Below, one piece after another: positions 7,247-40,802 of a stretch of DNA of 64,000 bases (position 1 is the stretch's first letter; the number at the start of each line of letters is the position of its first letter). The position numbers were made by a program, and so were the translations under genes. Source of the DNA: Candidatus Methylomirabilota bacterium. GTDB taxonomy: Bacteria; Methylomirabilota; Methylomirabilia; Methylomirabilales; CSP1-5. Location: positions 1,794 to 65,793 of the forward strand of contig VRUN01000003.1 of NCBI GenBank assembly GCA_019456075.1. Reading direction: 5' to 3'. The notes below the pieces were generated by a model. That model was not told the origin of the DNA. It saw only the letters and a list, made by a program, of their open reading frames with translations, and ran no database searches.

Positions 7247-7262
7247 TGCAAATGCCGTTCCA
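7247..7262 (-). promoter_or_regulatory. sigma54-type -24/-12 promoter candidate for the HD-GYP regulator
   Basis: The minus strand reads TGGAACGGCATTTGCA, with GG and GC in consensus register (TGGCACG-N4-TTGCW). It ends 26 nt upstream of the GTG start. Confidence 0.55.
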
Positions 7263-7292
7263 GACACAGGCGCTCTCCCGGTCCCGACAGGC

Positions 7293-7321
7293 TTGCGAAA
7301 GGAGGGGGTCACTGTTACACT
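7293..7321 (+). promoter_or_regulatory. sigma70-like promoter candidate for tRNA-Sec
   Basis: TTGCGA, a 17-nt spacer, then TACACT, ending 15 nt before the mature tRNA 5' end. Confidence 0.35.
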
Positions 7322-7336
7322 TCTTTCGTACGGTAC

Positions 7337-7431
7337 GGAGGCGGATTGGGTCTGGTGGCTCTCCCGGTCTTCAAAACCGGTGGGCCTGCCAAAAGCGGGC
7401 CGGTGGGTTCGATTCCCACACGCCTCCGCCA
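7337..7431 (+). tRNA. selC: tRNA-Sec (anticodon UCA)
   Basis: 95 nt starting GGAGGCGG and ending ACGCCTCC-G-CCA. Anticodon arm is CCGGT/CTTCAAA/ACCGG with TCA at 7371-7373. The long variable arm is GGCCTGC-CAAAA-GCGGGCC and the T arm is GTGGG-TTCGATT-CCCAC. Length and long extra arm are typical of bacterial selC. Confidence 0.9.
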
Positions 7432-7443
7432 GCCACCCTGAGG

Positions 7444-7487
7444 CCCCTTGTATAACGCGGAAGGGTCGCGTGAGCAAGGGGGTTTTT
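7444..7487 (+). terminator. Rho-independent terminator after tRNA-Sec
   Basis: CCCCTTG (7444-7450) pairs with CAAGGGG (7475-7481). There is an inner CGCG/CGCG stem, followed by GTTTTTG. Confidence 0.55.
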
Positions 7488-7640
7488 GCTGACCCCATTT
7501 TCGCTGGAAAACGATCGATCCCGGCCTCCCGCGCACACGAGCCGACGCGGCGGGGGGCCCCTGGCATGGGGAGGGACTGTTCATCGTACATCTACAGAGG
7601 AGGCGTTAGAGGCTTGCTGGACCCCCTATGTGGCGCGAGC

Positions 7641-8522
7641 TCAGCTTTTGTTCCCATCCTCGATCACCGACTGGATGTAATCGATAATCATCTTTCGCGT
7701 TTCGTCAGAACGGTCGAGGAATTCCAACCCGGTACGGTAAATCAACTGGCGATCCCCATCCGGCTGCACCTCTGACCGGTGCACCACCGAACGGGCTACG
7801 CGACACTTGAGGCTCATTCTCTTCCCGAGCAGATCGAGGTCCAAAGAGGAGAGGGTCCCTGGTCGAACAACATCGGCATGCTCAATCAGGGAGCCTCCCG
7901 GACTAATGTCCAGGATGCGCGCGTCGTAGATGGCAGTCACCCGCCCCTTGGTCCTCCCTCCCACGACGAATCGAGCGTGTTGCCGCCGGTCCGCAGCTTT
8001 CCGGTCTCCAGGTTTCCGCTCCGCAGCTTCTGGCCCAACAGCTCCCTCGACAGCAGCCTCCAGCTCCCCAGCGACCTCGTCCGGAGCCTCCGAGGCTGCA
8101 CCTTCCGCGACCGCGGCTTCCGGATCCGCAGGTTCTGGCTCCACGACCTTCAGGGTCGCTGCTTCCAAGCCCTCAGCTTCCCCCGCCGCGGCGTCTCGCT
8201 CCGTAGCTTTCCCATCGGAAGCCTCTGGCGCCACAGCGTTTTCGTCCGCAGGTTCCAGCTCACCGACTTCCCGGTTCGCCGCTTCCCCGTTCGCAGCTCC
8301 GCCGTCGAGGACAGGCGCTTCATTCTCGACGGTTAGCTGCGCTTTGGCCCCCTCGAGGGGAACAGATTCGGGGTTTGACCGGTTCTTTCGCCGCTTCTTT
8401 CTCTTTCTCTTCAACGCAATTCCTCGGTCAATTTCCATGAGTATATGGGGATCTAGAAGCCAGAGACCCGGAGAATATCCTCCAGAAGGATATCCCTGTG
8501 TAAAGGGAGCGGCACAAAACAT
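7641..8522 (-). CDS. PilZ domain protein with basic patch and acidic repeat region
   Basis: C-terminal PilZ (RRQHAR..., DISPGGSLIEH, CRVARSVVHRSE, YRTGLEFL). The N-terminal part has KRKRKKRRK followed by two ~40-aa E/A/P-rich repeats. The start codon is uncertain (8522 or 8438). Confidence 0.8.
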   Translation of the reverse strand: MFCAAPFTQGYPSGGYSPGLWLLDPHILMEIDRGIALKRKRKKRRKNRSNPESVPLEGAKAQLTVENEAPVLDGGAANGEAANREVGELEPADENAVAPEASDGKATERDAAAGEAEGLEAATLKVVEPEPADPEAAVAEGAASEAPDEVAGELEAAVEGAVGPEAAERKPGDRKAADRRQHARFVVGGRTKGRVTAIYDARILDISPGGSLIEHADVVRPGTLSSLDLDLLGKRMSLKCRVARSVVHRSEVQPDGDRQLIYRTGLEFLDRSDETRKMIIDYIQSVIEDGNKS

Positions 8523-8629
8523 CCATGGGCATCACCAATCAAAAGAGCCCGCAATCCCGGCCCAGGGCTCACACCAATAGAGGCAAATATGACCTGAAAT
8601 CAAGATCATGAGACGGCCAGTCCACGAAT

Positions 8630-8645
8630 AGCAGGAACCATGCCA
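8630..8645 (-). promoter_or_regulatory. sigma54-type -24/-12 promoter candidate
   Basis: The minus strand reads TGGCATGGTTCCTGCT, about 100 nt upstream of the PilZ ORF start at 8522. Confidence 0.6.
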
Positions 8646-8674
8646 AAGTGCCAAATACATGGGCAACGACCTCC

Positions 8675-9166
8675 TCAACCCTCGGCGGCCCCGTAGGAGC
8701 GAATGAACGCCCCGAGCGACTGCTGCGCCCCGCGGGACAAGTCGAGGAATTCCAAGCCCGTTTGATAATAGAGAGCTCCGTCTGCCCCGCTGTGACTGAC
8801 CCGGCTGTGCACCACCCGACACTGGATGGTCAACCGCTCCCCATTGGCCATCAGTTGGAGGAAGCAGGGGCTCGCGAGCTGAAGCACGTCTTGGTGTTCC
8901 ACGAGCGCTCCCGACAGGCTCAGATCCAGCACCTCAGCCTCCTGGAGGGTTGTGATGGCCGATGTGATCCCGGAAGTGCGGAATCGCGGAGGCTTCCGCT
9001 TTTGAAGGTCCCTGCGCGTAACTCGTCTGTGGTGTGCCTTTGTCATAGCGTGAACACGCATCAGCGGTTTAGGTCTTCCTGGACGGAAAGCCGGCTCGTC
9101 CCCACCCTGTTTTCGCGATCTTGTCCACCCCAACACCTGCCTGCGAAGCACGTGTTTTCTATGCAA
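8675..9166 (-). CDS. PilZ domain protein
   Basis: 163 aa with RKPPR (RxxxR) and DLSLSGALVEH (DxSxxG), plus ...CRVVHSRVSHS...YYQTGLEFL. It is a paralog of 7641..8522 and 25644..26084. Confidence 0.8.
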   Translation of the reverse strand: MHRKHVLRRQVLGWTRSRKQGGDEPAFRPGRPKPLMRVHAMTKAHHRRVTRRDLQKRKPPRFRTSGITSAITTLQEAEVLDLSLSGALVEHQDVLQLASPCFLQLMANGERLTIQCRVVHSRVSHSGADGALYYQTGLEFLDLSRGAQQSLGAFIRSYGAAEG

Positions 9167-9196
9167 ATATGCGGCCAGGCGTGAGCTTTTTCCCGC

Positions 9197-9979
9197 TCAG
9201 CCCCCCTCGCCCCTGTCGCGCTCGTCTATCTCCACGGCGACGTTGAGGAGCAGGGTTTCCAGATCCTTATCAATGGTCTTGGGAAGATGTGACGCATCTC
9301 GGGACTCAAGGGGAATAAAGGAAAAGTTCCCACTCCGCTCCCGATAGGAAGCCACCACGAGCGCGTTGAATGCCCCTTCTCCCGTCTGTTTTCTGAACTC
9401 CGCGTGCACGACCCGGCCAGACTCAAAGACCATGGCCCCCTCGTCGGCCGACAGGGACAGGACGAGCCGCCCTGATTTCCGGCCAATGGAGACCGCTTGG
9501 GCCACCTCCGTCAAGTCCATAACTGCCAACGAACCCTGAAGGGTGGCTGATGGTGCCTCCTTTGAGGCCATTGGCGTCTTTGCGGCTCGGGCGGAGGGTG
9601 GCGGGGTCGAGACGCCGCGGAGTTTGAGCTGCGTGTCCACGCGGGTCACAAGAGTGGAAGGGGGGGAGTTTTCTGGAAAGACCGTGTCCGCCTCAGTCTG
9701 GGTCGCCACCAGTGCCATCTGTGTCGACCGATCGACCAGGAGGACAAACATAATTTCTTTGGTCGTGGGGTCGGCCCGGACCATTGAGCATAGCTCGGAG
9801 CCGTACATGTCCTCGAACATGGACCGACTGACGATCAGGTCCGGCCGGCGCTGCTTTACACTTGCCAGGGCAGAAGACCCGCTGGTGGCCATCGAGACCT
9901 CGTAGCCCGCCGCTTCGAAGGCCTTTTGAAGCCGAAGGCTGCCGTCTGAATCGGCGTCAACCAGAAGCACCATTGCCAT
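9197..9979 (-). CDS. Receiver-like domain + DUF4388-type domain protein
   Basis: N-terminal CheY-like fold (MAMVLLVDADSDG...PDLIVSRSMFEDMYG), with Arg apparently at the phospho-acceptor Asp position. The C-terminal region matches my memory of DUF4388 (LQGSLAVMDLTEVAQAVSIGRKSGRLVL...GAMVFESGRVVHA...GEGAFNALV). The ORF could also start at GTG 10012. Confidence 0.75.
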   Translation of the reverse strand: MAMVLLVDADSDGSLRLQKAFEAAGYEVSMATSGSSALASVKQRRPDLIVSRSMFEDMYGSELCSMVRADPTTKEIMFVLLVDRSTQMALVATQTEADTVFPENSPPSTLVTRVDTQLKLRGVSTPPPSARAAKTPMASKEAPSATLQGSLAVMDLTEVAQAVSIGRKSGRLVLSLSADEGAMVFESGRVVHAEFRKQTGEGAFNALVVASYRERSGNFSFIPLESRDASHLPKTIDKDLETLLLNVAVEIDERDRGEGG

Positions 9980-10135
9980 GCGAATCCCCCCCAAAGACCA
10001 GCGCGGAAGCACACGGAACCCCGGCGAAACCGGACGGGCCGAGTGCCGTGGCCCAGGGTAACAATCGGCTGCCCCGAGGCTCCCCTGGCCTCCACCCGGT
10101 CAAACCGTGCACCGATCACGATCACGTCTCCGGTC

Positions 10136-10151
10136 TGCAGGGAATGTGCCA
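10136..10151 (-). promoter_or_regulatory. sigma54-type -24/-12 promoter candidate
   Basis: The minus strand reads TGGCACATTCCCTGCA, about 155 nt upstream of ATG 9979. Confidence 0.6.
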
Positions 10152-10296
10152 GGGGCCGTACATGACCGGATGAGTGGCTAAATCCGGCTGCGGAGGTAGG
10201 CGCTGAGATAATCGACCAGAGTCACGATGAGGTAGAGGGCAACGAGGAGGGTGAGAAGCTGGTTTTCGAGAAAGAGGCTGAGCGCAAGGGGGAGCG

Positions 10297-11211: not shown

Positions 11212-11215
11212 GGGA

Positions 11216-12250: not shown

Positions 12251-12278
12251 GTTGAATTCCTCAGTGGATGGTGGCCCC

Positions 12279-14501: not shown

Positions 14502-14511
14502 CACCTTACTC

Positions 14512-24200: not shown

Positions 24201-24507
24201 TTCCGCCTCCTTGGCCCGCCGATCCCGAGTGGGTCAACCTGTCGTCCCGCGGATCATTCGGCGGCCCATATGCTAGCACAGGGCCTTACATGGCGAAAGT
24301 AAAAGCTTGAGGCTCGATGTCCCCATTGCCCGAATTTGGACCACCCGATCCGCTCTGTTTGTCCCAGATCGAAGGCAACAGGGAGATGCGGTCGAAAGAA
24401 TTCGACATCCTCCTCGATGTCGAGCGGTACAGTCCGATATGACGAAGAGGGTGCAAAATCAATGCCCAACCGTCCAGCCTTTTCGCAAATGAGGAGACAG
24501 ACCCGGG

Positions 24508-25643: not shown

Positions 25644-26084
25644 TCAACTATTCACTGACCGGATCGGTTCAAGAGTGCCAAGAAATTCTAGCCCGCTTCG
25701 ATAAATCACATCGCGCTCCCCGTTAGACCCGAGCTCAGATCGGTGGGCCACCGAGCAGACCACCCGACACCTCAGCCCCATCTTTTTCTCGGGAAACAAG
25801 AGGCGCAGGAACAAGGCCGTCCCAGGCTGGACCGGGTTTAAGTGCTCCACCAGGGCCCCCCCCTGGCTGATATTGATAAGAGTGACCTCGTGGATAGGGG
25901 TAATCCGCGCCACGAACAGGTCTCCTACTTCTCCCACGACCCATCGGGGATAGTGCCGCCGGTTTTCCTTCACCCGCCTCACTCGCACGACTCGACCTCG
26001 TCGCAACCTTTCGCCTTGGAGAGCCACAACGACCCTCCCGGGCCGTACCGGACCCGAGAAGGCAGCGCCTGACGATGGACTCAC
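25644..26084 (-). CDS. PilZ domain protein
   Basis: RRHYPR..., NISQGGALVEH, CRVVCSVAHRSE, YRSGLEFL. The GTG start overlaps the upstream stop (GTGA). Confidence 0.8.
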   Translation of the reverse strand: MSPSSGAAFSGPVRPGRVVVALQGERLRRGRVVRVRRVKENRRHYPRWVVGEVGDLFVARITPIHEVTLINISQGGALVEHLNPVQPGTALFLRLLFPEKKMGLRCRVVCSVAHRSELGSNGERDVIYRSGLEFLGTLEPIRSVNS

Positions 26085-26824
26085 GGTTCGGTCAGCGGCT
26101 GCTCCCCTTCTCCTTCCGGCGTTGCCTCATCCGAGTCGACGAGCTGTCGAAGGAGGGCGCCGATAAGGAAGAGCTCCTTCCCGATGTCGTCCGAGCAGAA
26201 CCGCAGGCCGTGGAGCACGCTCTCTAGGGTGGGAGCACTGCGATTCCACACCACTTCCATCTCCGCCTCCACCGCGGGAAGGGTAAACCACGGGGGAATC
26301 TCAACGGTCAGCAGCGTGCGAGGAGAGAGCCCCTGGCCGACGGCGAGCTGCAGGCCGCCCTCGCTGATATTCTCGGCTTGACCTGTCACGCGCATATCTG
26401 GGGGAATCCTGCAGGCGACTTCCAGGGCGATCGGCAGGCGGACAGAGGCCCGGGGGGTCGGGCCCGCCTGGAGGACCAAGAGCCGTTCCCAGGTGGCAAG
26501 GTCGCCCCCCGTCAGTGCGGTGAATTTGAGACCCATCCGGGACGGGGGATCTTCGGCTTTCCAGACCACCACTGCTTCAGCCCGAGCGTTACGGTCCCCC
26601 GTGAGCAAGAGGAGGTTTATTGACGTACCCGCGGCCAGCGGCTGTGGGACCTCGAGCAGGAGCCCGTCCCGGCTCACGTTTTGCGTGAGACCGACGGTCC
26701 GGTAGACGGAGACCGCCGGGCTCTCACAAAAGACAGGCATCCGAAGCGGAAGCCGGGGATGCTGGCGGGTCGCGGCATGGTCCATGCGCTCTTCCACGGT
26801 CGCTCTAGGTCGCTTTGTATTCAT
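26081..26824 (-). CDS. Tandem (di-)PilZ domain protein
   Basis: There are two PilZ-like modules. The first is RQHPRLPL...QNVSRDGLLLE and the second is RASVRLPI...ENISEGGLQL. Confidence 0.78.
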   Translation of the reverse strand: MNTKRPRATVEERMDHAATRQHPRLPLRMPVFCESPAVSVYRTVGLTQNVSRDGLLLEVPQPLAAGTSINLLLLTGDRNARAEAVVVWKAEDPPSRMGLKFTALTGGDLATWERLLVLQAGPTPRASVRLPIALEVACRIPPDMRVTGQAENISEGGLQLAVGQGLSPRTLLTVEIPPWFTLPAVEAEMEVVWNRSAPTLESVLHGLRFCSDDIGKELFLIGALLRQLVDSDEATPEGEGEQPLTEP

Positions 26825-26908: not shown

Positions 26909-27400
26909 TTACACGCTGAGCGCGCTTACAATCCCCTTCAGCCGAGCGGGACTAATGGGCTTCTCGAGAAACTCCAATACCTTCAGCTCCTCTGCCTGAG
27001 TCTTGACATGCTTACTCTCTTCAGCGCCAACCACAACGATGGCAATCGCTGGATTGAAGGCCCGGAAGATGCGCACGAGATCCCAACCGCTCAGGGCGAC
27101 GCCATGAACTGGAGGAAGGTCGAGGTCAATAATAGCGACCTCGAAAGGATAATCCTTTATCTTCTTGATGGCCTGCCAGCTATCTGCAGCGGTCTCGACG
27201 GCATACCCGGCTCTGAGGAGCGACACCCGTAATCCCTCTCGGCTATGGAGTTCATTATCCACGACAAGAATCTTCTTTTGTTCCGGTGCTGGCACACTAG
27301 GCTGCTCAACGCGGACCGGCGTTTCACCGCTTTCCGGCCTGCGCAGCAGGGCTCGTTTAGCCACACCACGCTTTTGAGGGGCAATTCGTCTTTTCCCCAT
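26909..27400 (-). CDS. Single-domain CheY-like response regulator
   Basis: KKILVVDNE...VAIIDLDLPP...LEKP receiver domain preceded by ~50 basic residues. Start chosen at ATG 27400. The longer ORF to 27583 has non-protein-like sequence and would cover the promoter. Confidence 0.78.
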   Translation of the reverse strand: MGKRRIAPQKRGVAKRALLRRPESGETPVRVEQPSVPAPEQKKILVVDNELHSREGLRVSLLRAGYAVETAADSWQAIKKIKDYPFEVAIIDLDLPPVHGVALSGWDLVRIFRAFNPAIAIVVVGAEESKHVKTQAEELKVLEFLEKPISPARLKGIVSALSV

Positions 27401-27550: not shown

Positions 27551-27566
27551 GGCAGGCTCCATGCCA
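27551..27566 (-). promoter_or_regulatory. sigma54-type -24/-12 promoter candidate for the REC-diPilZ-PilZ operon
   Basis: The minus strand reads TGGCATGGAGCCTGCC, about 150 nt upstream of ATG 27400. Confidence 0.6.
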
Positions 27567-27676
27567 AACCGGGCAAGATTCACTCAAGGAGCCAGGAACC
27601 CTCGATTTTCGGGGCATTGTTCCGCATCCCCAGCGTAAGAAATCTGGAGAGCGAGGCTTTTCCCAACTGCGATGCG

Positions 27677-27720
27677 TGTAAGATTTACACGGGGCCGATG
27701 TAAGGATTACACGCGGCCGA
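27677..27720. promoter_or_regulatory. Tandem 22-bp repeat with internal palindromes (candidate enhancer/UAS)
   Basis: tgtaagatttacacggggccga and tgtaaggattacacgcggccga are 19/22 identical. Each contains TGTAA-N3-TTACA. Their centres lie about 118 and 140 bp upstream of the -24 element. Confidence 0.5.
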
Positions 27721-27797: not shown

Positions 27798-28241
27798 TCA
27801 TCTTACCGCGCCTACCAGTTCTTCTGCTAGGATGAGCGCCTTGTCTGCGAGATTATAAGCCCTGGAGAAATCCTTGACCGAAAGAGCCTCTCTGGCCTTG
27901 GACAGGAAGCTCTGAATGGTCGACACGAACTCCTGTTGGTCCTTGGCTAGCGTTTTCTGGTCAATGCGTTTAAACGTCTCCTCCGCTCCGTCGATTTTCG
28001 CCTCGGCCTGCTGCCTCAGCTGGGCCTCTTCCTCACGGCCCACTTGGGGAGCAAGCTTGCGAGGGGGAGCGGATGGCTCCTCTGTGACGGGCCCCGGTTT
28101 TGGCGGGGCCTCCCCAGGTTTCGATTTGGCACAGCCCGCAATGATGACTGCGAGGAGAATGAGGGAGCAGAGTGGTCTCGTTACTGCCGCTCCTTTCGAT
28201 TCTCTCGCCTCACTGCAAGGCATCTCTCTCTGCCAGCTCAA
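27798..28241 (-). CDS. Putative lipoprotein, function unknown
   Basis: Signal peptide with lipobox LAVIIAGC, a Pro-rich linker and a helical C-terminus. It immediately follows the histidine kinase gene. Confidence 0.65.
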   Translation of the reverse strand: MSWQREMPCSEARESKGAAVTRPLCSLILLAVIIAGCAKSKPGEAPPKPGPVTEEPSAPPRKLAPQVGREEEAQLRQQAEAKIDGAEETFKRIDQKTLAKDQQEFVSTIQSFLSKAREALSVKDFSRAYNLADKALILAEELVGAVR

Positions 28242-28249
28242 GATTGGGA

Positions 28250-30052
28250 CTATCCTACTGGAAGTCGCACGATCATGGTCGTCCCCCGCCCCACCTCCGA
28301 CAAGACCTCGATGAGGCCGTCATGCATCTGCACGACCCGGTAGACCAAGGAGAGGCCGATACCGCTTCCACCGGATTTTGTCGTGTAATAGAGCTGAAAG
28401 ATCTTGTCGGTGTCTTCAGGCGGGATCCCAACGCCGGTGTCGGCGATGCACACCTTGACAAACTCCCACCCCTCCCGTTCCGTCAGAATGTTGACGGTTC
28501 CTCCGGTCGGCATCGCCTGACAGGCGTTTAGCAGGATGTTCAAGAAGGCCTGCCTGAGCAGCTCTTCGTCGGCAGCCATGAGAGGAAGACTGCGATCAAA
28601 ATGGAAGGTGAATTGGATATCCTCTTTCTGCCATTCAGTCCCCAGGAGGGCCACCACATCTTTGAGTAGCGCGTTTAGGTCCAGCAGCTTCAAGCTCAGC
28701 TCCTCAGGGCGGATAAACTTCAAAAACCCCTGGACGACCCGATCCAAGCGCCGAATCTCGCTCCCGATGACCTCGAGGCTCTGGTGAACCTCTTCAGAGG
28801 GAGCGTCGAGCCTTTCCCTCAAGAGTTCGAGATGGATCATCATGGCGTTGAGAGGGTTTTTGACTTCGTGGGCCACGCCTGAAGTGAGCCTCCCAAGTGC
28901 CGTCAGTTTCGCCGAGTAGCTGATCAAGGACTGGACGGTCTTGATCGATTCCAGATCTTTCAGAGCTACCATGGCCCCCATCGCCCGCTGGGCATCCGTC
29001 ACGAAGAAAACCGACACCAGAAATTCCTTGTGGCCTCCGTCCCGGGGCACCGCGATGGCGGCATTGCGAAAGCCGGTTTGCTGCTCAAAGGCGTGCTCCA
29101 GCAAAGGGCGGAGGGGATGGGATAGCTCCAGCATCTCCTCCCACGGCCATCCGACGACTTGCTCGAGTGGCCTGGCCACAACGACCTCAGCGGCTTTGTT
29201 GAAGAAGAGGATCCGGCGGTCCTGGGTGAAGAGGATGATTCCATCCTCTAAGTGATCGACGACTTGCTGGAGTTGAGCCTTCTCGCTCAGCATCTTGAGG
29301 CGGTCTGCCTGCAGTTGCTGGCCCATGAGCTGGAGCTGGGAGGTCAGTTCACCAATCTCGTCCCCCCGACCGTGGGCGCCTCTCACCTCGAAGTCACCCC
29401 GCCCGATGCGGTCCACGTCCCGGGTGAGCTTCCGGATAGGCTTCAAAATCAGGGTGCCTAAACCCATCGCGACGAGCCAGGCCACGGGCAGGGCGAGGCC
29501 GGCGAGGGCAAGGCTTTTTCGCACCGAAGCGTTCAGCTCTCTTTTCAACAGGCTGGTGGCGATCCCGAGCCGGATGCTCCCGAAGGGCTTGTCGTTGAGG
29601 CTGAGGGGCAACTTGGCCTCGTAGATTTTTCCTGTCTCGTACAGGGCGAGGAAGCGGCCGATGGGATGGAGGGAGAGGAGCTCTTCTAGGCTTGGTCTCT
29701 CGGGGGCGTCTGCGCCCTCCTTTTCCCGTTCGCTGTGGAAGATCATCTTCCCTTTTTGGTCGGCGATCAGCGCGTACAGGAGGTGAGGCGAGTAACCGAT
29801 ACTCGCGTCAAGGAGACTTCTCAACTCCCCATCGCTCCTCAATGTCTCCGAGGGATCTTCGCCTCGCGCCCGAGAGAGGGAGCGGCTGCTTTGGGCGTAC
29901 ACTTGTCTGGCGATGAGCTCAGCCTGCCGCAACGCCTCTTGGACGACGACCCGAGTCAACTGGGAAAGGTGGATGAAGGTGGTGGTGGCCACCACCAGAA
30001 AGGTCAAGAGGGTAATGACCACCGCCTCTTTTCCTTTGACGCCAAACCGCAT
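28250..30052 (-). CDS. Sensor histidine kinase (TM-HAMP-PAS-HisKA-HATPase)
   Basis: 600 aa with H-box SGVAHEVKNPLN, an N/G boxes region (LLNACQAM, DTGVGI, GGSGIGLSLV) and a HAMP-like segment after the second TM. Confidence 0.9.
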   Translation of the reverse strand: MRFGVKGKEAVVITLLTFLVVATTTFIHLSQLTRVVVQEALRQAELIARQVYAQSSRSLSRARGEDPSETLRSDGELRSLLDASIGYSPHLLYALIADQKGKMIFHSEREKEGADAPERPSLEELLSLHPIGRFLALYETGKIYEAKLPLSLNDKPFGSIRLGIATSLLKRELNASVRKSLALAGLALPVAWLVAMGLGTLILKPIRKLTRDVDRIGRGDFEVRGAHGRGDEIGELTSQLQLMGQQLQADRLKMLSEKAQLQQVVDHLEDGIILFTQDRRILFFNKAAEVVVARPLEQVVGWPWEEMLELSHPLRPLLEHAFEQQTGFRNAAIAVPRDGGHKEFLVSVFFVTDAQRAMGAMVALKDLESIKTVQSLISYSAKLTALGRLTSGVAHEVKNPLNAMMIHLELLRERLDAPSEEVHQSLEVIGSEIRRLDRVVQGFLKFIRPEELSLKLLDLNALLKDVVALLGTEWQKEDIQFTFHFDRSLPLMAADEELLRQAFLNILLNACQAMPTGGTVNILTEREGWEFVKVCIADTGVGIPPEDTDKIFQLYYTTKSGGSGIGLSLVYRVVQMHDGLIEVLSEVGRGTTMIVRLPVG

Positions 30053-30053
30053 C

Positions 30054-31406
30054 TTACACCCCGTAGCGACGCAGCTTGTTGTGGAGAGTCTTCAGGCTCA
30101 CCCCTAAGATCTCGGCAGTTTTTGTCTTGTTATTGTTTACCGAGGCGAGCGTCCTCAGGATGAGGTCCTTCTCCGCTTTCTCGAGGCTGATCCCGACCGG
30201 GATGTTGACAAAGTCAGGACTCTCGTCCCTCGCCTTGCCCGCGAGGTTTGAGGGGAGGTGTTTTGGGGAAATGAGTTCAGTCTGGCAGGCGATAACAGCC
30301 CGCTCGATCGTATTCCGTAACTCTCGCACGTTTCCCGGCCATGGATACCGAGAGAAGAGTCGCAGCGTGGCTTCATCGACCGATTTGATCTGCTTCTCGT
30401 ATTTGGTGTTCAACTCCTCAATGAAGGCCTGAACGAGTAAAGGGATGTCCTCCCTCCGCTCCCTGAGAGGGGGGAGGGAAAGGTTAAAGACGTTCAAGCG
30501 GTAGTAAAGATCCTCCCTTAAGGATCCCTCATCAATCGCCTTCAGGGGATCCTTATTGGTCGCAGCCAGGACCCGCACATCCACCTTGATCTCTGCCTTC
30601 CCCCCGAGCCGCCTCACCGTACCGTCTTCAAGGATCCGCAGGAACTTGGCTTGGGTCGAAGGACTCATCTCGGCGATCTCGTCGAGGAAGATCGTTCCTC
30701 CATGAGCCATCTCGAAACACCCAATTCGCCGCTCCATCGCGCCGGTGAACGCCCCCCGCTCATGTCCGAAGATTTCGCTCTCCAACAGCGTCTCCGGGAT
30801 GGCCGAGCAGTTCACGGCGACGAAGGGCCGCTGGTTCCGGGGCGAAAGCTCATGGAGGATATGCGCCACCAGCTCCTTGCCAGTCCCACTCTCTCCGTAG
30901 ACCAGCACGGGGGCAGAGGTCGGGGCCGCGAGATCAATCAACCGGTAAAGGTCCTGCATGGTCCGGGCCGTGCCGACTATCTTCCCATACCCCCACACCT
31001 CCTTCAGCCGCCGCCGAAGGAGAGTCACCTCCCGAAGTGCTTCCCCTTTCTCCAGGGCCCGTTGGACCAGAGTTCTCAGTCTTGGAACGTCTACCGGCTT
31101 TGTCAGGAAGTCGTAGGCCCCCTCCTTCATGGCGGCGACCGCCGTCTCGATCGTGCCATGGCCGGTGAGGATGATGACCGTGGCGAAAGGCAACTCCTCC
31201 TGAATGGCCTTCAAGAGTCCTAGCCCATCGAGTTTAGGCATGACGAGATCGGCGATGACGACGGCTGGGAGGAAGGCCACGCCCTTCTGTAAAGCATCCT
31301 CCCCGTCAGACGCTTCCTCGACCTCGTACCCCCAGTTGGATAGGAGCGCCTTCAGCCCCTTTCGGGAAGCCCCTTCATCGTCGGTAACTAAGATTCGATG
31401 CCCCAT
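30054..31406 (-). CDS. sigma54-dependent response regulator (NtrC family bEBP)
   Basis: REC (ILVTDDEG...VIADLVMPKLDG), AAA+ with GESGTGKELVA and GAFTGA, and a C-terminal Fis-type HTH (KTKTAEILGVSLKTLHNKLRRYG). ATG 31406 has a GGAGGGAGG RBS. Confidence 0.93.
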   Translation of the reverse strand: MGHRILVTDDEGASRKGLKALLSNWGYEVEEASDGEDALQKGVAFLPAVVIADLVMPKLDGLGLLKAIQEELPFATVIILTGHGTIETAVAAMKEGAYDFLTKPVDVPRLRTLVQRALEKGEALREVTLLRRRLKEVWGYGKIVGTARTMQDLYRLIDLAAPTSAPVLVYGESGTGKELVAHILHELSPRNQRPFVAVNCSAIPETLLESEIFGHERGAFTGAMERRIGCFEMAHGGTIFLDEIAEMSPSTQAKFLRILEDGTVRRLGGKAEIKVDVRVLAATNKDPLKAIDEGSLREDLYYRLNVFNLSLPPLRERREDIPLLVQAFIEELNTKYEKQIKSVDEATLRLFSRYPWPGNVRELRNTIERAVIACQTELISPKHLPSNLAGKARDESPDFVNIPVGISLEKAEKDLILRTLASVNNNKTKTAEILGVSLKTLHNKLRRYGV

Positions 31407-31746
31407 CCTCCCTCCAATGCTGTGCAAAACACCAAGGAGTGCGCGAGATCTAGGCGAGGGCCATGCCTTACCCTGGCACCATCATGGATTTCTCCGTCGA
31501 GGGCCGGAGTATCACCCAAGCTGCGATCCCTGTCAAGAGCCTGGTGCATAACACGCCAGGGTGAATCGGAGGAGGCGATCTGCCGGACCACCCAGACGGT
31601 CCTCGTGGATGGCGGCTTCCCGTGAGACCTAAGCGACCACCCGATTCTGCAAGCGAGCCGCTTCCCCAGGAGGGCCTGAGTCGAGAGGTCCTTGATCAAC
31701 CCTGAAGGGAATTGAGATCAGATGTGCAAGATTCTTTCATGCTGAC

Positions 31747-32187
31747 TCACGATTGCTCTTTGTACGCAATCGCAAGAAGTCGGGCCTGTTTGGCCCACAT
31801 GCGGCGACGGGCCGCGGGGGTCGTATCGTCGTAGCCCAAGAGGTGGAGGATGCCATGGACTAAAAGGAGAGCAAGCTCCTGATCAAGGGAATAGCCGTGT
31901 TCTTTGGCCTGGCGAGCGGCGGTCTCGACCGAGATGACCACATCGCCTAGGAGATGGGGCTGCGGTGATGGGGAACCCTTTTGCTGCGGAAAAGCCAGGA
32001 CGTCGGTGGAACGATCATGGTTCAAATACGTCTGATTGAGCCGCCGAATAGCCCGATCACCGACGAGAAGTACCGAGACCTCATTCCTCGGTCTGCCCAA
32101 GACGTATAATGTCTTCTCCCCCACCCTTTTTAGCCGTGACAGCCCGACCCGCCGCCTCTTTTGCCGATTTCGGATCTCTATCCTCAT
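31747..32187 (-). CDS. ybeY: rRNA maturation endoribonuclease YbeY
   Basis: HGILHLLGYDD zinc motif. Start taken at MRIEIRNRQ (ATG 32187), which overlaps the upstream gene by ~107 nt. Confidence 0.88.
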   Translation of the reverse strand: MRIEIRNRQKRRRVGLSRLKRVGEKTLYVLGRPRNEVSVLLVGDRAIRRLNQTYLNHDRSTDVLAFPQQKGSPSPQPHLLGDVVISVETAARQAKEHGYSLDQELALLLVHGILHLLGYDDTTPAARRRMWAKQARLLAIAYKEQS

Positions 32188-33757
32188 CCCCTTTCCTCTC
32201 ACCCTCCTTCTTCTTGACCTCTTCGAACTTGTACCCGGGATAGTCCACCCGGTGGTGGTGGATGGCTGTGAGGACGCGGACAAAGGCCTTGGCAATCCGG
32301 TGCAGGTCCTTCAGGGTGAGATCACATTCGGACAGTTCCCCCTCGATAAAGATCGTGTTCACGATCCGATTGACCAGTCCTTGCACCCGGGCCGGCGTGG
32401 GGTCGGTCAGTGTCCTCCCCGCCGCTTCGACCGCATCGGCCAGCATTAGAATCGCCGCCTCCCTCGTCTGGGGCCTGGGGCCCGGGTAGCGGTAATCCTC
32501 TTCCTTCACCTCGCCGAGATCAGGATCCTGGGACTCTTTGGCCCTCTCGTAAAAATAGGTGACGAGGCGAGTGCCGTGGTGCTGCGGAATCATGTCTACA
32601 ATGGCAGGCGGCAGCCGGTGTTCCAGGGCCATCTCGATCCCATCCTTGACGTGGGAAATGAGGATGAGACTACTCAGACTCGGAGACAGCTTATCGTGCC
32701 TGTTCATAGCGTCCATCTGGTTCTCAATAAAGTAGGCTGGTTTCTTCACTTTGCCGATGTCGTGATAGTACGCGCCGACCCGACAGAGGAGAGTATTGGC
32801 GTCGATAGCGTCGGAAGCCGCCTCCGACAGCTCCCCCATCATCAAGCTATGGTGGTACGTCCCGGGAGCCGTCTTCATGAGTTGCTTGAGCAGGGGCTGG
32901 TTCAGGTTGGAGAGTTCGAGGAGTTTCAGATCGGTGGTGGTCCCGAAGAGATACTCCAGGATGGGGAGAAGCGTTGAGGCGAAGAGGGCAACCACCACCC
33001 CGTTCACGATGCAGGCCACCAGATCATACGCCAACGCTGGGGCTGACCAGCCGTAGATCGGGATGAAGACAACAATGGAGCCGACATTGGCCAAGGCGAC
33101 CCAGCATCCCGCCTTGAAGAAGGCGGTTCGGTCCTGGGACCGCCGGATGCTAAACGCCCCGACGATAGCCCCGATCAGTCCAAACAGGAGGAAAGTCACC
33201 TCATCCGTCACCATGACCGTGGTCAGTATGCCGAGGGCAATAGCCCCCCCAAAGGCCGTTCGGGCATTAAAGAGGACGGAGAGCAGCACACTGCCCAGGG
33301 CCACGGGGATCGTGTAGTAGAAAGACTGAAGAGAAATGAAGGAAAAACTGTGGTTTAAGGACTGGAGGACGACCAGGAGAAAGCGGTTGATCAGGATGGC
33401 CAGGAGGACCACCGTCCCAAGGAGGTACAGGTGCTTGGGGGACACTACCGGCCGGACCTCGAGGAACCGAACATAAAAGTAGAGGGCCCCGAGCACGAAA
33501 AGGGCGAGACAGCTGATCGCCACGACCGAAACAGGCCCTAGGGGTAAGGGACGATAGGAGGCAACCACCAGGCCTACGGTCACGACCAGCAGGATCCCCA
33601 GGACCAGGGGAATTACGGGTCGCTCCTCCGAGGTCCGAAAGAGTCTCCCCATCGGGGAGAGGCGGTAGCGATAGGCAGGCAGGGTCGTCGGCTTGCTGGC
33701 CATCTTGCTGTCGTTACCCTTCTTCGCCCCTGACGCAACCCACTGCGAGATCTTCAT
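32081..33757 (-). CDS. 7TM-HD (HDIG) membrane phosphohydrolase, PgpH/YqfF-like
   Basis: Multi-TM N-terminal region and an HD domain (YHHSLMMGELS, YYHDIGKVKKP). Confidence 0.88.
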   Translation of the reverse strand: MKISQWVASGAKKGNDSKMASKPTTLPAYRYRLSPMGRLFRTSEERPVIPLVLGILLVVTVGLVVASYRPLPLGPVSVVAISCLALFVLGALYFYVRFLEVRPVVSPKHLYLLGTVVLLAILINRFLLVVLQSLNHSFSFISLQSFYYTIPVALGSVLLSVLFNARTAFGGAIALGILTTVMVTDEVTFLLFGLIGAIVGAFSIRRSQDRTAFFKAGCWVALANVGSIVVFIPIYGWSAPALAYDLVACIVNGVVVALFASTLLPILEYLFGTTTDLKLLELSNLNQPLLKQLMKTAPGTYHHSLMMGELSEAASDAIDANTLLCRVGAYYHDIGKVKKPAYFIENQMDAMNRHDKLSPSLSSLILISHVKDGIEMALEHRLPPAIVDMIPQHHGTRLVTYFYERAKESQDPDLGEVKEEDYRYPGPRPQTREAAILMLADAVEAAGRTLTDPTPARVQGLVNRIVNTIFIEGELSECDLTLKDLHRIAKAFVRVLTAIHHHRVDYPGYKFEEVKKKEGERKGDEDRDPKSAKEAAGRAVTAKKGGGEDIIRLGQTEE

Positions 33758-36773: not shown

Positions 36774-36840
36774 GCTCCCCCATTACCGTAAGCGGAAGGC
36801 CTGCAGCCCGACCCGCTCTCGTACCACCGGATGGTCTTTA

Positions 36841-38136: not shown

Positions 38137-38422
38137 CGAATCTCCTTGGGTCGTCCGCAAGTTCCCCGTATCCCACAACGCGGGAACGCAAAGATATCCG
38201 TAACGCTCCTATACCGAGGGAAGCGGGGGATGTGTAGCCCCGATCCGAAATTCGAACCGGGGGCTTGGTCCTCCGAAGGCTCCTGAGAAGCCCACATGGC
38301 CACACTCCGAGCAGCCCCAGGGGGCCACTATAGGGGCGTATGGGTGTGACCCTCTGATCCGGTAGGAGCAAGACCGAACCACAATTCCTGCGATTCTGGC
38401 GTCGATCTTTTTCGGATCGGGG

Positions 38423-39379
38423 TTAGTAGATGGGATTACGATCAAAACGGTGGATAGCCTCAATGAAGCGGACCGTTCCTGACTTGGAGCGCATCACCAG
38501 CGAATGGGTCTTTGCTCCACCGCCGAAAAACCGGACCCCCTTCAGGAAATCGCCATCGGTGACCCCGGTGGTGGTGAACGTGACCTCGCCACCCTTGGCG
38601 AGATCAGTGATGGTGAGGACTTGTTCGATCTCCTTGAGACCGGTCCGGCGGACACGCTCGACGTCCTCCTCGCTCGACGGTGTAAATTGGGCCTGCATGT
38701 CCCCTCCCAGGCATCTCAAGGCTGCCGCTGCGAGCACCCCTTCGGGTGCCCTGCCGATCCCCATGAGAACATCCACGCCGGAATCCTCTAAAGCAGTCGC
38801 GATGGCGGCAGAGAGGTCGCCACCCTGGATCAGCTTGATTCGAGCACCCATCTCCCGGACCGCTTTGATGAGGTCGACGTGACGCGGTCGGTCGAGCATG
38901 ACCACGGTGAGATCTTCGACATAGCACTTCATCGTCTCAGCGATGGATCGGAGATTCGCTTCTGGACCCGCGGTGATATCAATGGCCCCCAGCGCCTTGG
39001 GCCCGACCGCGATCTTCTCCATGTAGACATCCGGAGCGGGAAAAAGGCAACCCTTTTCCGCAAGTGCCACCGCCGCCAGGGCGTTCGCCCGGCCCTCGGC
39101 AACCATGGACGGCCCTTCGACCGGCTCCGCCGCCACATCCAGCTCAGGCCCGGCCCCAGAACCGACCTGCTCGCCGACGTACAGGGTGGGGGTCTCCCCT
39201 TTTTCGCCCCGCCCGATCACAACGGTTCCGGCGAAGTTGACCCCATCAAAGGCCCGGCGCATGGCATCCAGAGCGGTCTGCTCCGCCAGCTGCTCATTGC
39301 CCCGGCCCATCCATCGCGCACACGAGATCGCGGCGGCCTCAGCGACCCGCACTACCTCCAGGGCCAGATTTCGCTCCAT
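38423..39379 (-). CDS. glpX: Class II fructose-1,6-bisphosphatase (GlpX type)
   Basis: MERNLALEVVRVAEAAAISCARWMGRG... is the typical GlpX N-terminus and the pattern holds full length. ATG 39379 has a GGGAGG RBS. Confidence 0.92.
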   Translation of the reverse strand: MERNLALEVVRVAEAAAISCARWMGRGNEQLAEQTALDAMRRAFDGVNFAGTVVIGRGEKGETPTLYVGEQVGSGAGPELDVAAEPVEGPSMVAEGRANALAAVALAEKGCLFPAPDVYMEKIAVGPKALGAIDITAGPEANLRSIAETMKCYVEDLTVVMLDRPRHVDLIKAVREMGARIKLIQGGDLSAAIATALEDSGVDVLMGIGRAPEGVLAAAALRCLGGDMQAQFTPSSEEDVERVRRTGLKEIEQVLTITDLAKGGEVTFTTTGVTDGDFLKGVRFFGGGAKTHSLVMRSKSGTVRFIEAIHRFDRNPIY

Positions 39380-39605
39380 CCACAACCTCCCCAGAGAGCC
39401 GTAAAAGCGTGATTCCATCGATACTTAGAACGGAGGCAAAGTATAGAAGAGGCCCCCGCATATGTCAAGTGATGATTGAGCGAAGGTGTAAGCAAAAAGA
39501 GATATTTAAGCCTCCCAGAAGAGGCACGACGCTGAATGGGTGGAGCGTGAGCGGGACGAGGGAGTCATCTCGATCGAAGAGTTCACCCAGGGAACCCTCC
39601 AGCGA

Positions 39606-40568
39606 TTAGAGGGGCCCGCCGAAGTTCTCCGTGAGGTTCAGGGGGGCGGTGAGCTCCCCTCCTCGTTCCAAGAGCCTGGCCTTCTCAATGACGACAGCGG
39701 CGTGCATAGCGATGGCCTCGAGCAGCCGTAGATCCGCCTCGGCAAACGGGCGCCCGTCGGTGTGATTGAGAAGCTCCACGACGCCGATGATCCCCTGACT
39801 CGTCTTCAAGGGGGCGGACAGGATCGAACGGGTGACAAAGCCGCTTTCCTGGTCCATCTCGGCAGAGAAGCGGTGATCAGTGCTGGTGTCGGAAACCAGG
39901 ACGCCCTCGCCGTTCTGGACAACCCACCCGGCGATGCCCTGGCCGGCCGCCAGTCGGCGCCCGCGGAGCTGTTCCGCAACGCGCCCCAGGGCGACGGCGA
40001 AAACCAATTCCCCTGTGGTCTCATCCCGCAAGAGCAGGGACCCCGCCTTGGCGTGCAGGGCGGCACCGATCCGCTCGATGGCCAGTTCGAGTACTGTCTG
40101 GAGGTCATGGGCGGAATTGAGGATGGTCGCCACCTGGTTAAGGGCCTCAAGCTCTTCGATCCGCCGCCTGAGCACCATGATGTCCTCGAGAAAGGTCACT
40201 TCCTGGCCCTTCGGGGCGCCATCCAGAAGCTCCCGGAAAAAGCAGTCGACCAGCTCCTTATGCTCATCGGGATTGGTGATCATAACCCGGCGCGCCTTCC
40301 GCTCCGACACAAGGGGAAGGCGGGTGATCTCCGTGGTACACTCCACCATTTGGGAGACCAGGCCAGCTTTTTCGAAGATCGGCTTCAAAGAGATGGTACC
40401 GATCTTAACCTCCGCCGAGGCGTAGTCGTACCATCGGTTGACATATCCCAACCCGTTGTCCCAAACGAAGGGATGCTGCCCCGGCGGGTCGGAATGGCCC
40501 ACATCCAGTGCTTCGGCCCGCTTCTGGGCCTGGTTGCGTTCGTCCGAGGTGATGTAAAACTTGATCAT
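39606..40568 (-). CDS. GAF-domain protein with uncharacterised N-terminal domain
   Basis: C-terminal GAF (LQTVLELAIERIGAALHAKAGSLLLRDETTGELVF...GIAGWVV...IGVVELLN). I do not recognise the N-terminal ~170 aa. ATG 40568 is preferred over TTG 40670. Confidence 0.8.
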   Translation of the reverse strand: MIKFYITSDERNQAQKRAEALDVGHSDPPGQHPFVWDNGLGYVNRWYDYASAEVKIGTISLKPIFEKAGLVSQMVECTTEITRLPLVSERKARRVMITNPDEHKELVDCFFRELLDGAPKGQEVTFLEDIMVLRRRIEELEALNQVATILNSAHDLQTVLELAIERIGAALHAKAGSLLLRDETTGELVFAVALGRVAEQLRGRRLAAGQGIAGWVVQNGEGVLVSDTSTDHRFSAEMDQESGFVTRSILSAPLKTSQGIIGVVELLNHTDGRPFAEADLRLLEAIAMHAAVVIEKARLLERGGELTAPLNLTENFGGPL

Positions 40569-40786
40569 AGCGTCCTTGTTCTTGGGGTTAGGGGGGATTT
40601 TTTGCAATATCAATGCTAAGAATTTCGATCGGATAGCCTCCAGCCGCTGCTGCTGGCAGGGGTGAGACAATGCTCATCCCCCCCCCTGAAGAACGAGAAG
40701 TGAAATGAGGGGGGGAAGGGATCACCCTCAGGGGCTGTTTTGGGGCAGTCCTAGTTGTCCAGGCAGTGGCTCCAGCCGGTCAGTGC

Positions 40787-40802
40787 TGGCATGGTTCTTG
40801 CT
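40787..40802 (+). promoter_or_regulatory. sigma54-type -24/-12 promoter candidate for di-PilZ gene
   Basis: TGGCATGGTTCTTGCT, ending 37 nt upstream of ATG 40840. Confidence 0.65.

Follow-up and report, generated by a model that had tools for sequence, protein, structure and literature searches.

In a 64,000-nt piece of a Methylomirabilales (NC10) bacterial genome, referred to here as the window, six -24/-12 elements of the sigma-54 type stand ahead of genes for c-di-GMP receptors, their receiver partners and one REC-HD-GYP protein. From sequence comparison, we estimate a probability of about 80% that these elements are genuine sigma-54 (RpoN) promoters driving separate receptor, receiver-partner and REC-HD-GYP units. 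It is very likely that the sites themselves are real sigma-54 promoters. Five c-di-GMP receptor or degrading-enzyme genes or operons bear such a site, and a sixth probably does as well. PilZ genes as sigma-54 targets are a new observation; the finding reveals no new mechanism.

Sigma-54-type sites in the window

A preliminary description of this DNA had listed five 16-mers, and re-checking of the sequence returned all of them at the coordinates and on the strands given there. GG and GC stand in consensus register, as was also described, with exactly 10 nt between them in TGGCAC-N5-TTGCW, and the same register is found in a sixth candidate site, absent from that list, before the PilZ gene at 8675–9061. 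The sites are given below with scores from an approximate sigma-54 weight matrix modelled on the published consensus; the bit scores (12.3–18.2 for the six) are accordingly approximate.

7247–7262, minus strand: sigma-54-type site TGGAACGGCATTTGCA, 26 nt ahead of the REC-HD-GYP GTG; 17.1 bits
8630–8645, minus strand: sigma-54-type promoter TGGCATGGTTCCTGCT of the acidic PilZ gene; 16.5 bits
9162–9177, minus strand: sixth candidate sigma-54-type promoter TGGCCGCATATTTGCA, 100 nt ahead of the PilZ ATG (9061); 12.3 bits
10136–10151, minus strand: sigma-54-type promoter TGGCACATTCCCTGCA, 156 nt ahead of the REC-DUF4388 ATG (9979); 16.2 bits
27551–27566, minus strand: sigma-54-type promoter TGGCATGGAGCCTGCC, 150 nt ahead of the operon ATG (27400); 13.2 bits
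40787–40802, plus strand: sigma-54-type -24/-12 promoter TGGCATGGTTCTTGCT, 37 nt ahead of the diPilZ ATG; 18.2 bits, the top matrix match in the window

After correction of start codons, the five originally named sites are non-coding, on the sense strand and upstream of the genes to which they had been assigned. All six sites are intergenic and gene-oriented, at 26–156 nt ahead of the start codon. The domain assignments of the preliminary description agree with Pfam (REC+HD_5, PilZ, REC+DUF4388, REC and two tandem-PilZ proteins).

Matches of this kind might arise by chance in a GC-rich genome. The loose pattern TGG-N10-GC is indeed not enriched, with 181 matches against 176 expected, and a good match, TGGATCGGTCTTTGCT (62314–62329, 13.9 bits), lies inside dtd, with a weaker one inside the CCA-adding enzyme gene. 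At higher stringency, four sites of at least 16 bits are present in the window against 0.17 expected, so that high-scoring sites are more than 20-fold over-represented, and all four are intergenic and correctly oriented although intergenic DNA makes up only 11% of the window. These top four matrix matches are four of the five originally named sites, the fifth (27551–27566) ranking seventh. Shuffled sequences contain the pattern TGGCA-N7-TGC 1.69 times on average; the window has it 5 times, a count reached by only 1 of 100 shuffles. Chance is already contradicted by the conservation of the sites in orthologous loci, as described below, and we give it next to no weight.

According to the preliminary description, housekeeping genes in the window lack a match of equal quality. 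This is nearly right, with two borderline exceptions, namely GGGCATTGATTTTGCA (24452–24467, 13.2 bits) between era and glmU and the match in dtd; the latter was rejected as an intergenic site on account of its position within the coding region. A sigma-70 consensus promoter was found in none of the three regions searched, and the long leaders contain no riboswitch, c-di-GMP classes included. A sub-threshold match to the fluoride riboswitch was dismissed, being antisense and within a coding region.

Conservation of the sites in related loci

Across orthologous Methylomirabilales loci (denoted by L and a number), the -24 (TGGCA) and -12 (TTGC) elements are kept, with their GG and GC parts invariant, and variation is seen in the spacer and the flanking sequence. 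This conservation extends to the diPilZ gene, the REC-DUF4388 gene, both small PilZ genes and the REC operon, and only in part to the HD-GYP gene. The sigma-54 reading, as first suggested, is backed by comparison at four of the five named sites and at the sixth; the HD-GYP site is conserved in some relatives only. The profile obtained from related loci with the window left out is canonical, YTGGCAYG-N4-TTGCW, with frequencies of T.85 G.98 G.98 C.97 A.88 Y G.80 ... T.88 T.98 G.98 C.98 W; we take it to be the sigma-54 consensus. As a positive control for the lineage, sigma-54 sites are found before the PII/glnB gene and before two activator genes.

The top-scoring site precedes the following gene.

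40840–41529, plus strand: tandem-PilZ protein, 229 aa, TIGR02266 family (Pfam PilZ twice; TIGR02266 77.1 bits, above the cut-off)

Its start is the ATG at 40840, not 40705, and in relatives it is found in synteny with FBPase_3. A sense-strand site of at least 13 bits is present in 61 of the 71 orthologous loci, and an antisense one in 4 of 71. In the upstream alignment, conserved columns are limited to TGGCA and CTTGC together with the ribosome-binding site and ATG of the gene, and the spacers vary from locus to locus (GGTTC, GCTTC, GGAAT, ACTTC, GATCC and others). Sites are kept at PilZ genes despite the proteins being only 48–68% identical. A terminator-like hairpin over 40772–40790 was also considered and rejected, there being no plus-strand gene upstream and no conservation of the stem in the alignment.

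By Pfam, PilZ is present in all five of the PilZ proteins of these units. Four of them have both RxxxR and [D/N]xSxxG, and would be expected to bind c-di-GMP. The protein encoded at 40840 has RxxxR, with NVNAGG and NLCQGG in place of [DN]xSxxG, which makes c-di-GMP binding by it uncertain.

Three further units with sites lie next to one another on the minus strand.

9197–9979, minus strand: REC-DUF4388 (PATAN-type) response regulator (Pfam Response_reg + DUF4388)
8675–9061, minus strand: small PilZ protein, 128 aa (Pfam PilZ; RKPPR, DLSLSG)
7641–8522, minus strand: PilZ protein with a long acidic Ala/Glu/Pro-rich linker (Pfam PilZ at residues 179–284; RQHAR, DISPGG)

The REC-DUF4388 start is the ATG at 9979, not the GTG at 10012. 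Each of the 8 related loci scanned has a site of 14.9–16.3 bits in the equivalent position, and TGGCA and TGCA are invariant in the alignment of 10136–10151. Of the 8 loci scanned, 7 (L087, L090–L092 and L096–L098) have an orthologue of the sixth site, which reads TGGCAGCATATTTGCA or TGGCAGCATAATTGCA and scores 14.6–15.7 bits. The site at 8630–8645 is identical in L096–L098 and reads TGGCATGTTTCATGCT in L087; it is missing in L090–L092, in which 58 nt separate the two PilZ genes. As judged from the sequence, the acidic PilZ protein may start at the ATG at 8522 or at a later ATG, and its homologue in L073 starts near a basic KRKRK stretch. When the REC-DUF4388 protein was used as a query against genome contigs, only distant actinobacterial receiver domains were returned, and an exact look-up gave no record. 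The Rokubacterial homologue belongs to a chemosensory and pilus cluster and is a paralogue, which makes it unsuited to footprinting.

Activator and candidate enhancer beside the REC/diPilZ/PilZ operon

The promoter at 27551–27566 is accompanied by further elements of a sigma-54 system.

26909–27400, minus strand: stand-alone receiver (REC) protein, first gene of the operon (Pfam Response_reg; ATG 27400 in frame with the listed ORF)
26081–26824, minus strand: tandem-PilZ protein, 247 aa (Pfam PilZ twice; RxxxR and [DN]xSxxG in each half)
25644–26084, minus strand: single PilZ protein (Pfam PilZ; RHYPR, NISQGG; 4-nt overlap with the preceding tandem-PilZ gene)
28250–31427, minus strand: two-component system, activator (30054–31427) and kinase (28250–30052), by Pfam
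27677–27711, no strand: two perfect palindromes TGTAA-N3-TTACA (27677–27689 and 27699–27711), 22 bp apart, candidate enhancer (UAS)

The start of the REC gene is the ATG at 27400, not the GTG at 27583, and its orthologues in L099 and L100 are 164–166 aa long. In these two loci, the gene order activator-kinase-hypothetical-REC-diPilZ is kept, and the promoter is found at the same place, as TGGCATGGAGTCTGCC in L099 and TGGCATGGACCCTGCC in L100. The activator adjoining the operon is an NtrC-family sigma-54 activator with REC, AAA+ and HTH_8 domains, a Walker A motif GESGTGK and GAFTGA at residue 225; the sensor kinase is composed of sCache_3_2, HAMP, PAS, HisKA and HATPase domains. The palindromes were found by a custom search, since an inverted-repeat search at seed 6 misses 5-nt arms, and these two are the only perfect matches to TGTAA-N3-TTACA in the window. 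Measured from the -24 element, the pair stands at -147/-125 in the window and likewise in L099, L100 and L103, and L073 has one perfect copy and one with a single mismatch at a similar distance from the promoter. We know of no characterised activator with this half-site.

Classical sigma-54 promoters are served by an activator of the NtrC family and by enhancer sites in tandem further upstream, as in enterobacterial glnAp2 with NtrC. The predicted arrangement here is similar in having a GG-N10-GC core with TGGCA and TTGC, a REC-AAA+(GAFTGA)-HTH_8 activator encoded beside its kinase, and two dyad-symmetric sites, two helical turns apart and more than 100 bp upstream. It differs in its presumed target, which is one operon with genes for a receiver protein and PilZ receptors instead of nitrogen assimilation.

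The motif could instead be the site of another protein, whether a repressor, an activator or another sigma factor, that resembles the sigma-54 consensus. In line with this, a search for an RpoN box gave nothing, either in the window or across about 1 Mb of related loci, so that rpoN has not been seen directly, and the custom search returned no conserved enhancer-like palindrome for five of the six promoters, nor was a shared upstream element detected for these five. On the other side, the information in the motif falls on the very positions of the canonical consensus, GG and GC being 10 nt apart, the motif is asymmetric and gene-oriented, and the range of distances to the start codon, from 25 to 156 nt, fits a promoter and not an operator tied to another promoter. 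The adjacent GAFTGA activator, the tandem palindromes at the classic distance and the same motif ahead of glnB also argue against another protein, and we consider such a site improbable. Further Sigma54_activat genes in the relatives, together with the GAFTGA activator of the window, indirectly support an rpoN gene in the genome.

In the sigma-54 reading, RNA polymerase with sigma-54 would wait on each promoter as a closed complex, and firing would need remodelling by an AAA+ enhancer-binding protein, itself activated by a signal. With the closed complex gated by an activator in this way, the receptor set would be made conditionally, not constitutively, and the promoter conservation in related genomes suggests that the receptors are made only when specific activators switch them on. 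The most likely activator of the REC/diPilZ/PilZ operon is the NtrC-type response regulator encoded beside it, which would bind the two TGTAA-N3-TTACA palindromes about 140–165 bp upstream of the predicted start and would be controlled by the Cache/HAMP/PAS kinase. The other promoters probably have different activators. One shared regulon is not what was found, because only the promoter at 27551–27566 has the palindromes upstream.

Distribution of the sites among transcription units

In the preliminary description, each site was placed before a c-di-GMP gene. This holds for the PilZ and HD-GYP genes; the REC-DUF4388 and REC proteins are not c-di-GMP proteins themselves and are PilZ neighbours or operon leaders. 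The expected enrichment at c-di-GMP genes is seen within the window, where a site is present at 6 of the 7 leaders of c-di-GMP transcription units against 1 of the 26 others (Fisher p = 4e-5).

It should be considered whether the promoters are real and the link to c-di-GMP is nothing special: sigma-54 might simply be much used in this lineage for accessory, envelope and signalling genes, and PilZ genes, being numerous, might come together in one window by locality. When sites scoring 14 bits or more were counted across 992 kb of related loci, about 14 target families were unconnected with c-di-GMP and 7 were linked to it, with PII, two activators, small lipoproteins and secreted proteins, a TPR protein, bactofilin and DUF748-OmpA among the former. 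These loci were gathered through the PilZ and DUF4388 genes themselves, so any estimate of lineage-wide enrichment from them is biased. The module of TGTAA-N3-TTACA enhancer and promoter is also found before a bactofilin operon (L103) and a CusF/DUF2914 gene (L073), and some PilZ paralogues have no site, including the three paralogues of the 26081 tandem-PilZ protein in L101, L103 and L105. Against this stand the enrichment in the window, the conservation specifically at PilZ genes of diverged proteins, and the sites at further PilZ genes in other contexts, namely a 336-aa PilZ protein (L093), a tandem-PilZ protein (L078) and a DUF4388-PilZ fusion (L073). We regard a non-special link as unlikely, though as a serious contender.

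Comparison with known systems

How specific outputs are obtained from one messenger, c-di-GMP, through many receptors is an open question, and conditional receptor expression is one of the answers proposed. In the window, a group of PilZ receptor genes is apparently wired to the most tightly gated class of bacterial promoters. We tentatively suggest, as a possibility well short of an even chance, that the receptor side of c-di-GMP signalling in Methylomirabilota is organized as modules gated by sigma-54 and activators, each a PilZ receptor and a receiver partner with a dedicated, signal-activated enhancer-binding protein. The output specificity of one diffusible messenger would then be set transcriptionally, through the choice of receptors that the cell contains, and the TGTAA-N3-TTACA module would also couple PilZ to bactofilin and envelope genes.

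Sigma-54 has been placed upstream of individual c-di-GMP signalling genes before: VA3580 of Vibrio alginolyticus is RpoN-dependent (PMC11722192), and E. coli yhjK and yeaJ have predicted sigma-54 promoters (PMC3162934). Those genes encode individual diguanylate cyclases in Gammaproteobacteria, whereas the genes described here are mainly for receptors, with five PilZ genes spread over four units, and include one for an HD-GYP protein, with a promoter for each unit and conservation across an order of the NC10 phylum. No description of a PilZ-centred sigma-54 target set was found in the literature, only single RpoN-dependent diguanylate cyclase genes (PMC11722192, PMC3162934). A tie between c-di-GMP signalling and the sigma-54/activator machinery is also found in the c-di-GMP-binding enhancer-binding proteins FleQ (PMC3424551), BerB (PMC5552954) and EpsI/Nla24 (as cited in PMC8316039). 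The proposed wiring is reversed: there c-di-GMP acts on the activator, and here an activator with sigma-54 would act on receptor production.

The PilZ proteins themselves resemble the Myxococcus-type paralogue families with PlpA, PixA and PixB (PMC8316039) in the TIGR02266 assignment of the 40840 protein and in the occurrence of several paralogues of the small PilZ and tandem-PilZ kinds, of which some go together with receiver domains. A search of that paper found no mention of sigma-54 promoters of the Myxococcus PilZ genes, and the proteins described here belong to another phylum.

The NC10 bacteria are nitrite-dependent methane oxidisers, for which our literature search found no study of c-di-GMP. 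The six promoters, the activator/kinase pair and the defined enhancer sequence are testable parts, and the lineage-specific sigma-54 profile can be used for annotating organisms that are hard to grow.

The HD-GYP gene and the neighbouring tRNA-Sec

The only turnover gene among the units with sites is the following.

6213–7220, minus strand: REC-HD-GYP response regulator of the c-di-GMP phosphodiesterase type (Pfam Response_reg + HD_5, E = 2.3e-44)

Its start is the GTG at 7220, and with HD at residue 192, HHE at 245 and GYP at 253, it would by its sequence qualify as an HD-GYP c-di-GMP phosphodiesterase. A site is found at the same distance in L090 and L092, as TGGAACGGCTCTTGCG (11.8 bits). 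In the other two of the four related lineages, L087 and L093, it is degenerate, at 2.5 and 5.4 bits respectively. The ORF at 7217–7591, which covers the site, is spurious, and this stretch holds a tRNA-Sec gene on the plus strand (7337–7431). The conserved blocks AAGTGTAACAGT and GCGCAAG upstream of the HD-GYP gene were rejected as its enhancer; read on the opposite strand, they give TTGCGA-17 nt-TACACT, which resembles a sigma-70 promoter and would serve the divergent tRNA-Sec gene.

Signalling islands and sigma-54-type sites in the window

The gene map of the window was rebuilt from ORF lists, Pfam, ARAGORN and Rfam. The sequence (60% G+C) carries mostly housekeeping genes on the minus strand (selB, lon, gatAB, uvrD, glmSU, era, aspS, hisS, dnaE, guaAB, trpS and others), among which the signalling genes form three islands.

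Signalling genes of the window
6213-7220, minus: REC-HD-GYP (island 1)
7641-8522, minus: acidic PilZ (island 1)
8675-9061, minus: small PilZ (island 1)
9197-9979, minus: REC-DUF4388 (island 1)
25644-26084, minus: PilZ (island 2)
26081-26824, minus: tandem PilZ, the second diPilZ (island 2)
26909-27400, minus: REC (island 2)
27798-31427, minus: hypothetical gene, Cache/HAMP/PAS histidine kinase and NtrC-family sigma-54 activator (directly upstream of island 2)
40840-41529, plus: tandem PilZ of the TIGR02266 family, the first diPilZ (island 3)

The preliminary description reported five sigma-54-type 16-mers, at 7247-7262, 8630-8645, 10136-10151, 27551-27566 (all minus) and 40787-40802 (plus). 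All five are present exactly as claimed; with start codons corrected, they are non-coding, on the sense strand and 26 to 156 nt before a gene. In its loose form, TGG-N10-GC, the pattern occurs about as often in the window as expected (181 matches vs 176). The stricter TGGCA-N7-TGC occurs five times vs 1.69 expected, a count reached by 1 of 100 shuffles. Scores were taken from a 16-column sigma-54 weight matrix written from knowledge of the published consensus, so the bit values are approximate. At 16 bits or more, a first-order Markov model predicts 0.17 sites and the window has four, all of them from the reported set; the fifth reported site ranks seventh among the matches of the window. Seven of the eight best matches are intergenic and correctly oriented, in a window that is 11% intergenic, the exception being 62314-62329 within dtd. 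The eighth-best match, TGGCCGCATATTTGCA at 9162-9177, lies 100 nt ahead of the small PilZ gene and had been overlooked; it is a sixth candidate. No Rfam riboswitch was detected in the leaders of the sites, and no match to the sigma-70 consensus was found in the three promoter regions.

Enrichment at c-di-GMP-linked genes

A unit leader was counted as positive when a site scoring 12 bits or more lay within 300 nt. By this measure 6 of 7 c-di-GMP-linked leaders in the window are positive vs 1 of 26 others (Fisher's one-sided p = 4e-5). The single positive among the others is a site between era and glmU. This site, GGGCATTGATTTTGCA (24452-24467, minus, 13.2 bits), is located 41 nt past the era stop, upstream of glmU-glmS; a strong ribosome-binding site comes next, with a possible ORF of 38 aa from about 24408. 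Among the related loci collected for comparison (L-numbers), it recurs at the same position in L096 as GGGCATTGATATTGCA and is absent in L099 and L100. The enterobacterial glmS pathway is tied to sigma-54 via glmY (PMC3162934).

In the related loci as a whole, 30 gene families have a site of 14 bits or more in front of them; about 8 of these seem to be spurious ORFs, and some 11 such sites are expected by chance. The real targets comprise seven that are c-di-GMP-linked and about fourteen that are not. The loci were retrieved using the PilZ and DUF4388 genes, which biases any lineage-wide estimate of enrichment. Targets without a c-di-GMP link include PII/glnB, two activator genes, small lipoproteins and secreted proteins, a TPR protein, a bactofilin and DUF748-OmpA. 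PII/glnB is a classical sigma-54 target and serves as a positive control. Further PilZ genes with sites encode a 336-aa PilZ protein (L093), a tandem-PilZ protein (L078) and a DUF4388-PilZ fusion (L073); none precedes three second-diPilZ paralogues that lie in other contexts. From these comparisons, PilZ genes are a prominent, conserved class of predicted sigma-54 targets in this order, and others exist too.

Conservation of the sites in relatives

The comparison set amounts to about 1 Mb. Homologues of the first diPilZ, REC-DUF4388 and the second diPilZ carry the source names Candidatus Methylomirabilales, NC10 or Methylomirabilis, and an identical diPilZ gene is found on an ENA metagenome scaffold (ERZ23499215 scaffold_415). 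A sense-strand site of at least 13 bits is located upstream of 61 of 71 diPilZ orthologues (48-68% protein identity), vs 4 of 71 on the antisense strand; the start is usually 25-55 nt further on. The spacer of the site varies freely, with TGGCA and [C/T]TTGC invariant. After MAFFT alignment of 50 distinct diPilZ upstream regions, column conservation reaches 80% only in TGGCA, CTTGC, the ATG and the ribosome-binding site.

The cluster at 6.2-10.2 kb keeps its order in relatives, namely gatCAB, glycosyltransferase, lysR, (phnDCEE), REC-DUF4388, PilZ, PilZ, REC-HD-GYP and lon. Sites were found upstream of REC-DUF4388 in 8/8 loci scanned, of the first PilZ in 7/8 (TGGCAGCATATTTGCA, with a better -24 element than that of the window) and of the second PilZ in 4/8. 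The HD-GYP site keeps its 26-nt distance in L090 and L092 (11.8 bits) and is degenerate in L087 and L093; it is the weak one of the predicted set. For the REC/diPilZ/PilZ operon, both relatives with synteny retain the site. A profile of 30 columns was trained on the related loci alone (70 distinct sites, none from the window); its information falls exactly at T-G-G-C-A-Y-G and T-T-G-C-W, the canonical sigma-54 consensus known from the literature.

The assignment of these sites as sigma-54 promoters of PilZ/c-di-GMP-linked genes is thus supported as a prediction, with strong comparative evidence behind it, but the HD-GYP member is weak and exclusivity to c-di-GMP does not hold across the lineage.

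Two other conserved sigma-54-like sites flank diPilZ orthologues in the relatives. In 10 loci (L016-L022, e.g. L018 636-651, minus), TGGCTCGTGAATTGCA points divergently towards the gene of a small secreted protein; in 18 loci (L030-L054, e.g. L054 2507-2522), CGGCACGATTCTTGCT lies just downstream of diPilZ and precedes the gene of a small lipoprotein. Neither protein has a Pfam match.

A candidate activator and a candidate enhancer

The activator gene at 30054-31427 encodes REC, Sigma54_activat, AAA_lid_14 and HTH_8 domains (Pfam), with a Walker A motif and an intact GAFTGA loop. We know of no role for an activator of this type without sigma-54. The gene rpoN is absent from the window, and no RpoN box was found in the fetched related loci. 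Only two perfect TGTAA-N3-TTACA palindromes exist in the window, both upstream of the 27551-27566 promoter. In the window and in L099, L100 and L103 the two copies are 22 bp apart, at -147 and -125 relative to the -24 element; in L073, at a similar distance, one copy is perfect and the other has a single mismatch. Tandem palindromes at such positions are textbook enhancer geometry, which makes the adjoining two-component system the likely activator of this promoter. No such element was found upstream of the other promoters, so these are probably served by other activators and would not form one regulon.

This palindrome pair also occurs with TGGCATGGA..TGCC at L103 11687-11849, before a bactofilin operon, and at L073 7984-8150, upstream of a CusF/DUF2914 secreted-protein gene adjoining another activator. 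This recurring module hints at a wider regulon for the activator family.

Relation to known systems

Sigma-54 promoters are classical, as are NtrC-type activators and tandem enhancers. Known links between sigma-54 and c-di-GMP mostly run in the reverse direction to that predicted here, with c-di-GMP acting on and bound by the activators FleQ (PMC3424551), BerB (PMC5552954) and EpsI/Nla24 (cited in PMC8316039). Single diguanylate cyclase genes provide further links: RpoN binds upstream of the single diguanylate cyclase gene VA3580 of Vibrio alginolyticus (PMC11722192), and sigma-54 promoters are predicted for the diguanylate cyclase genes yhjK and yeaJ of E. coli (PMC3162934). The open-access literature yielded no precedent for a set of PilZ receptor genes that each have a separate sigma-54 promoter, and nothing on c-di-GMP in Methylomirabilis. 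The sites would add a set of targets to a long-established regulatory system, within a phylum so far unstudied.

PilZ and DUF4388 proteins

The best-conserved putative promoter would drive the tandem PilZ protein 40840-41529, in which NVNAGG and NLCQGG stand in place of the [D/N]xSxxG motifs; its c-di-GMP binding may be weak or nil. At L073 9382-10447, a single protein combines DUF4388 (PATAN) with a PilZ domain, with TGGCACAATTACCGCA (13.1 bits) upstream. This fusion speaks for joint action of the REC-DUF4388 regulator and its PilZ neighbours. In the Rokubacterial contig L106 (3802-17829), a REC-DUF4388 homologue sits inside a cluster with CheY, CheW, MCP, CheA, MglA/Roadblock-like and PilB-like (MshEN) proteins, and TGGTAGGGGGTTTGCA (14.4 bits, 3693-3708) precedes the first gene. 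This chemosensory/PilB-like setting suggests a role of the regulator family in type IV pilus control. A prepilin peptidase is encoded at 62673-63512 of the window.

Other observations in the window

An ORF apparently covering 7247-7262 was rejected as spurious; the opposite strand of that DNA carries tRNA-Sec (7337-7431, plus), divergent from the HD-GYP gene, and selB is at 14-1717. Blocks within 7263-7336, conserved in five lineages, read TTGCGA-17 nt-TACACT on the plus strand, a predicted sigma-70-like promoter for tRNA-Sec. Between lysR and the REC-DUF4388 promoter, 10152-10296 (minus) retains only the 3' end of a phnE-type permease gene (...LVDYLSAYLRSRI*); relatives have a complete phosphonate ABC transporter (PhnD, PhnC, two permeases) at the corresponding place, lost in the window. 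The match within the dtd coding region, TGGATCGGTCTTTGCT (62314-62329, minus, 13.9 bits), lies 237 nt upstream of xerC/D and represents either chance or an intragenic site. Within the phoH-ybeY operon, 32081-33757 (minus) encodes a 7TM receptor that has an intracellular HD domain and resembles PgpH-type c-di-AMP phosphodiesterases; it has no sigma-54 site. Two unrelated fructose-1,6-bisphosphatases, GlpX class II (38423-39418) and FBPase_3 (41801-42937), flank a GAF gene and the first diPilZ gene; the diPilZ-FBPase_3 synteny is conserved, with only 65-68% identity for diPilZ vs 88-91% for FBPase_3.
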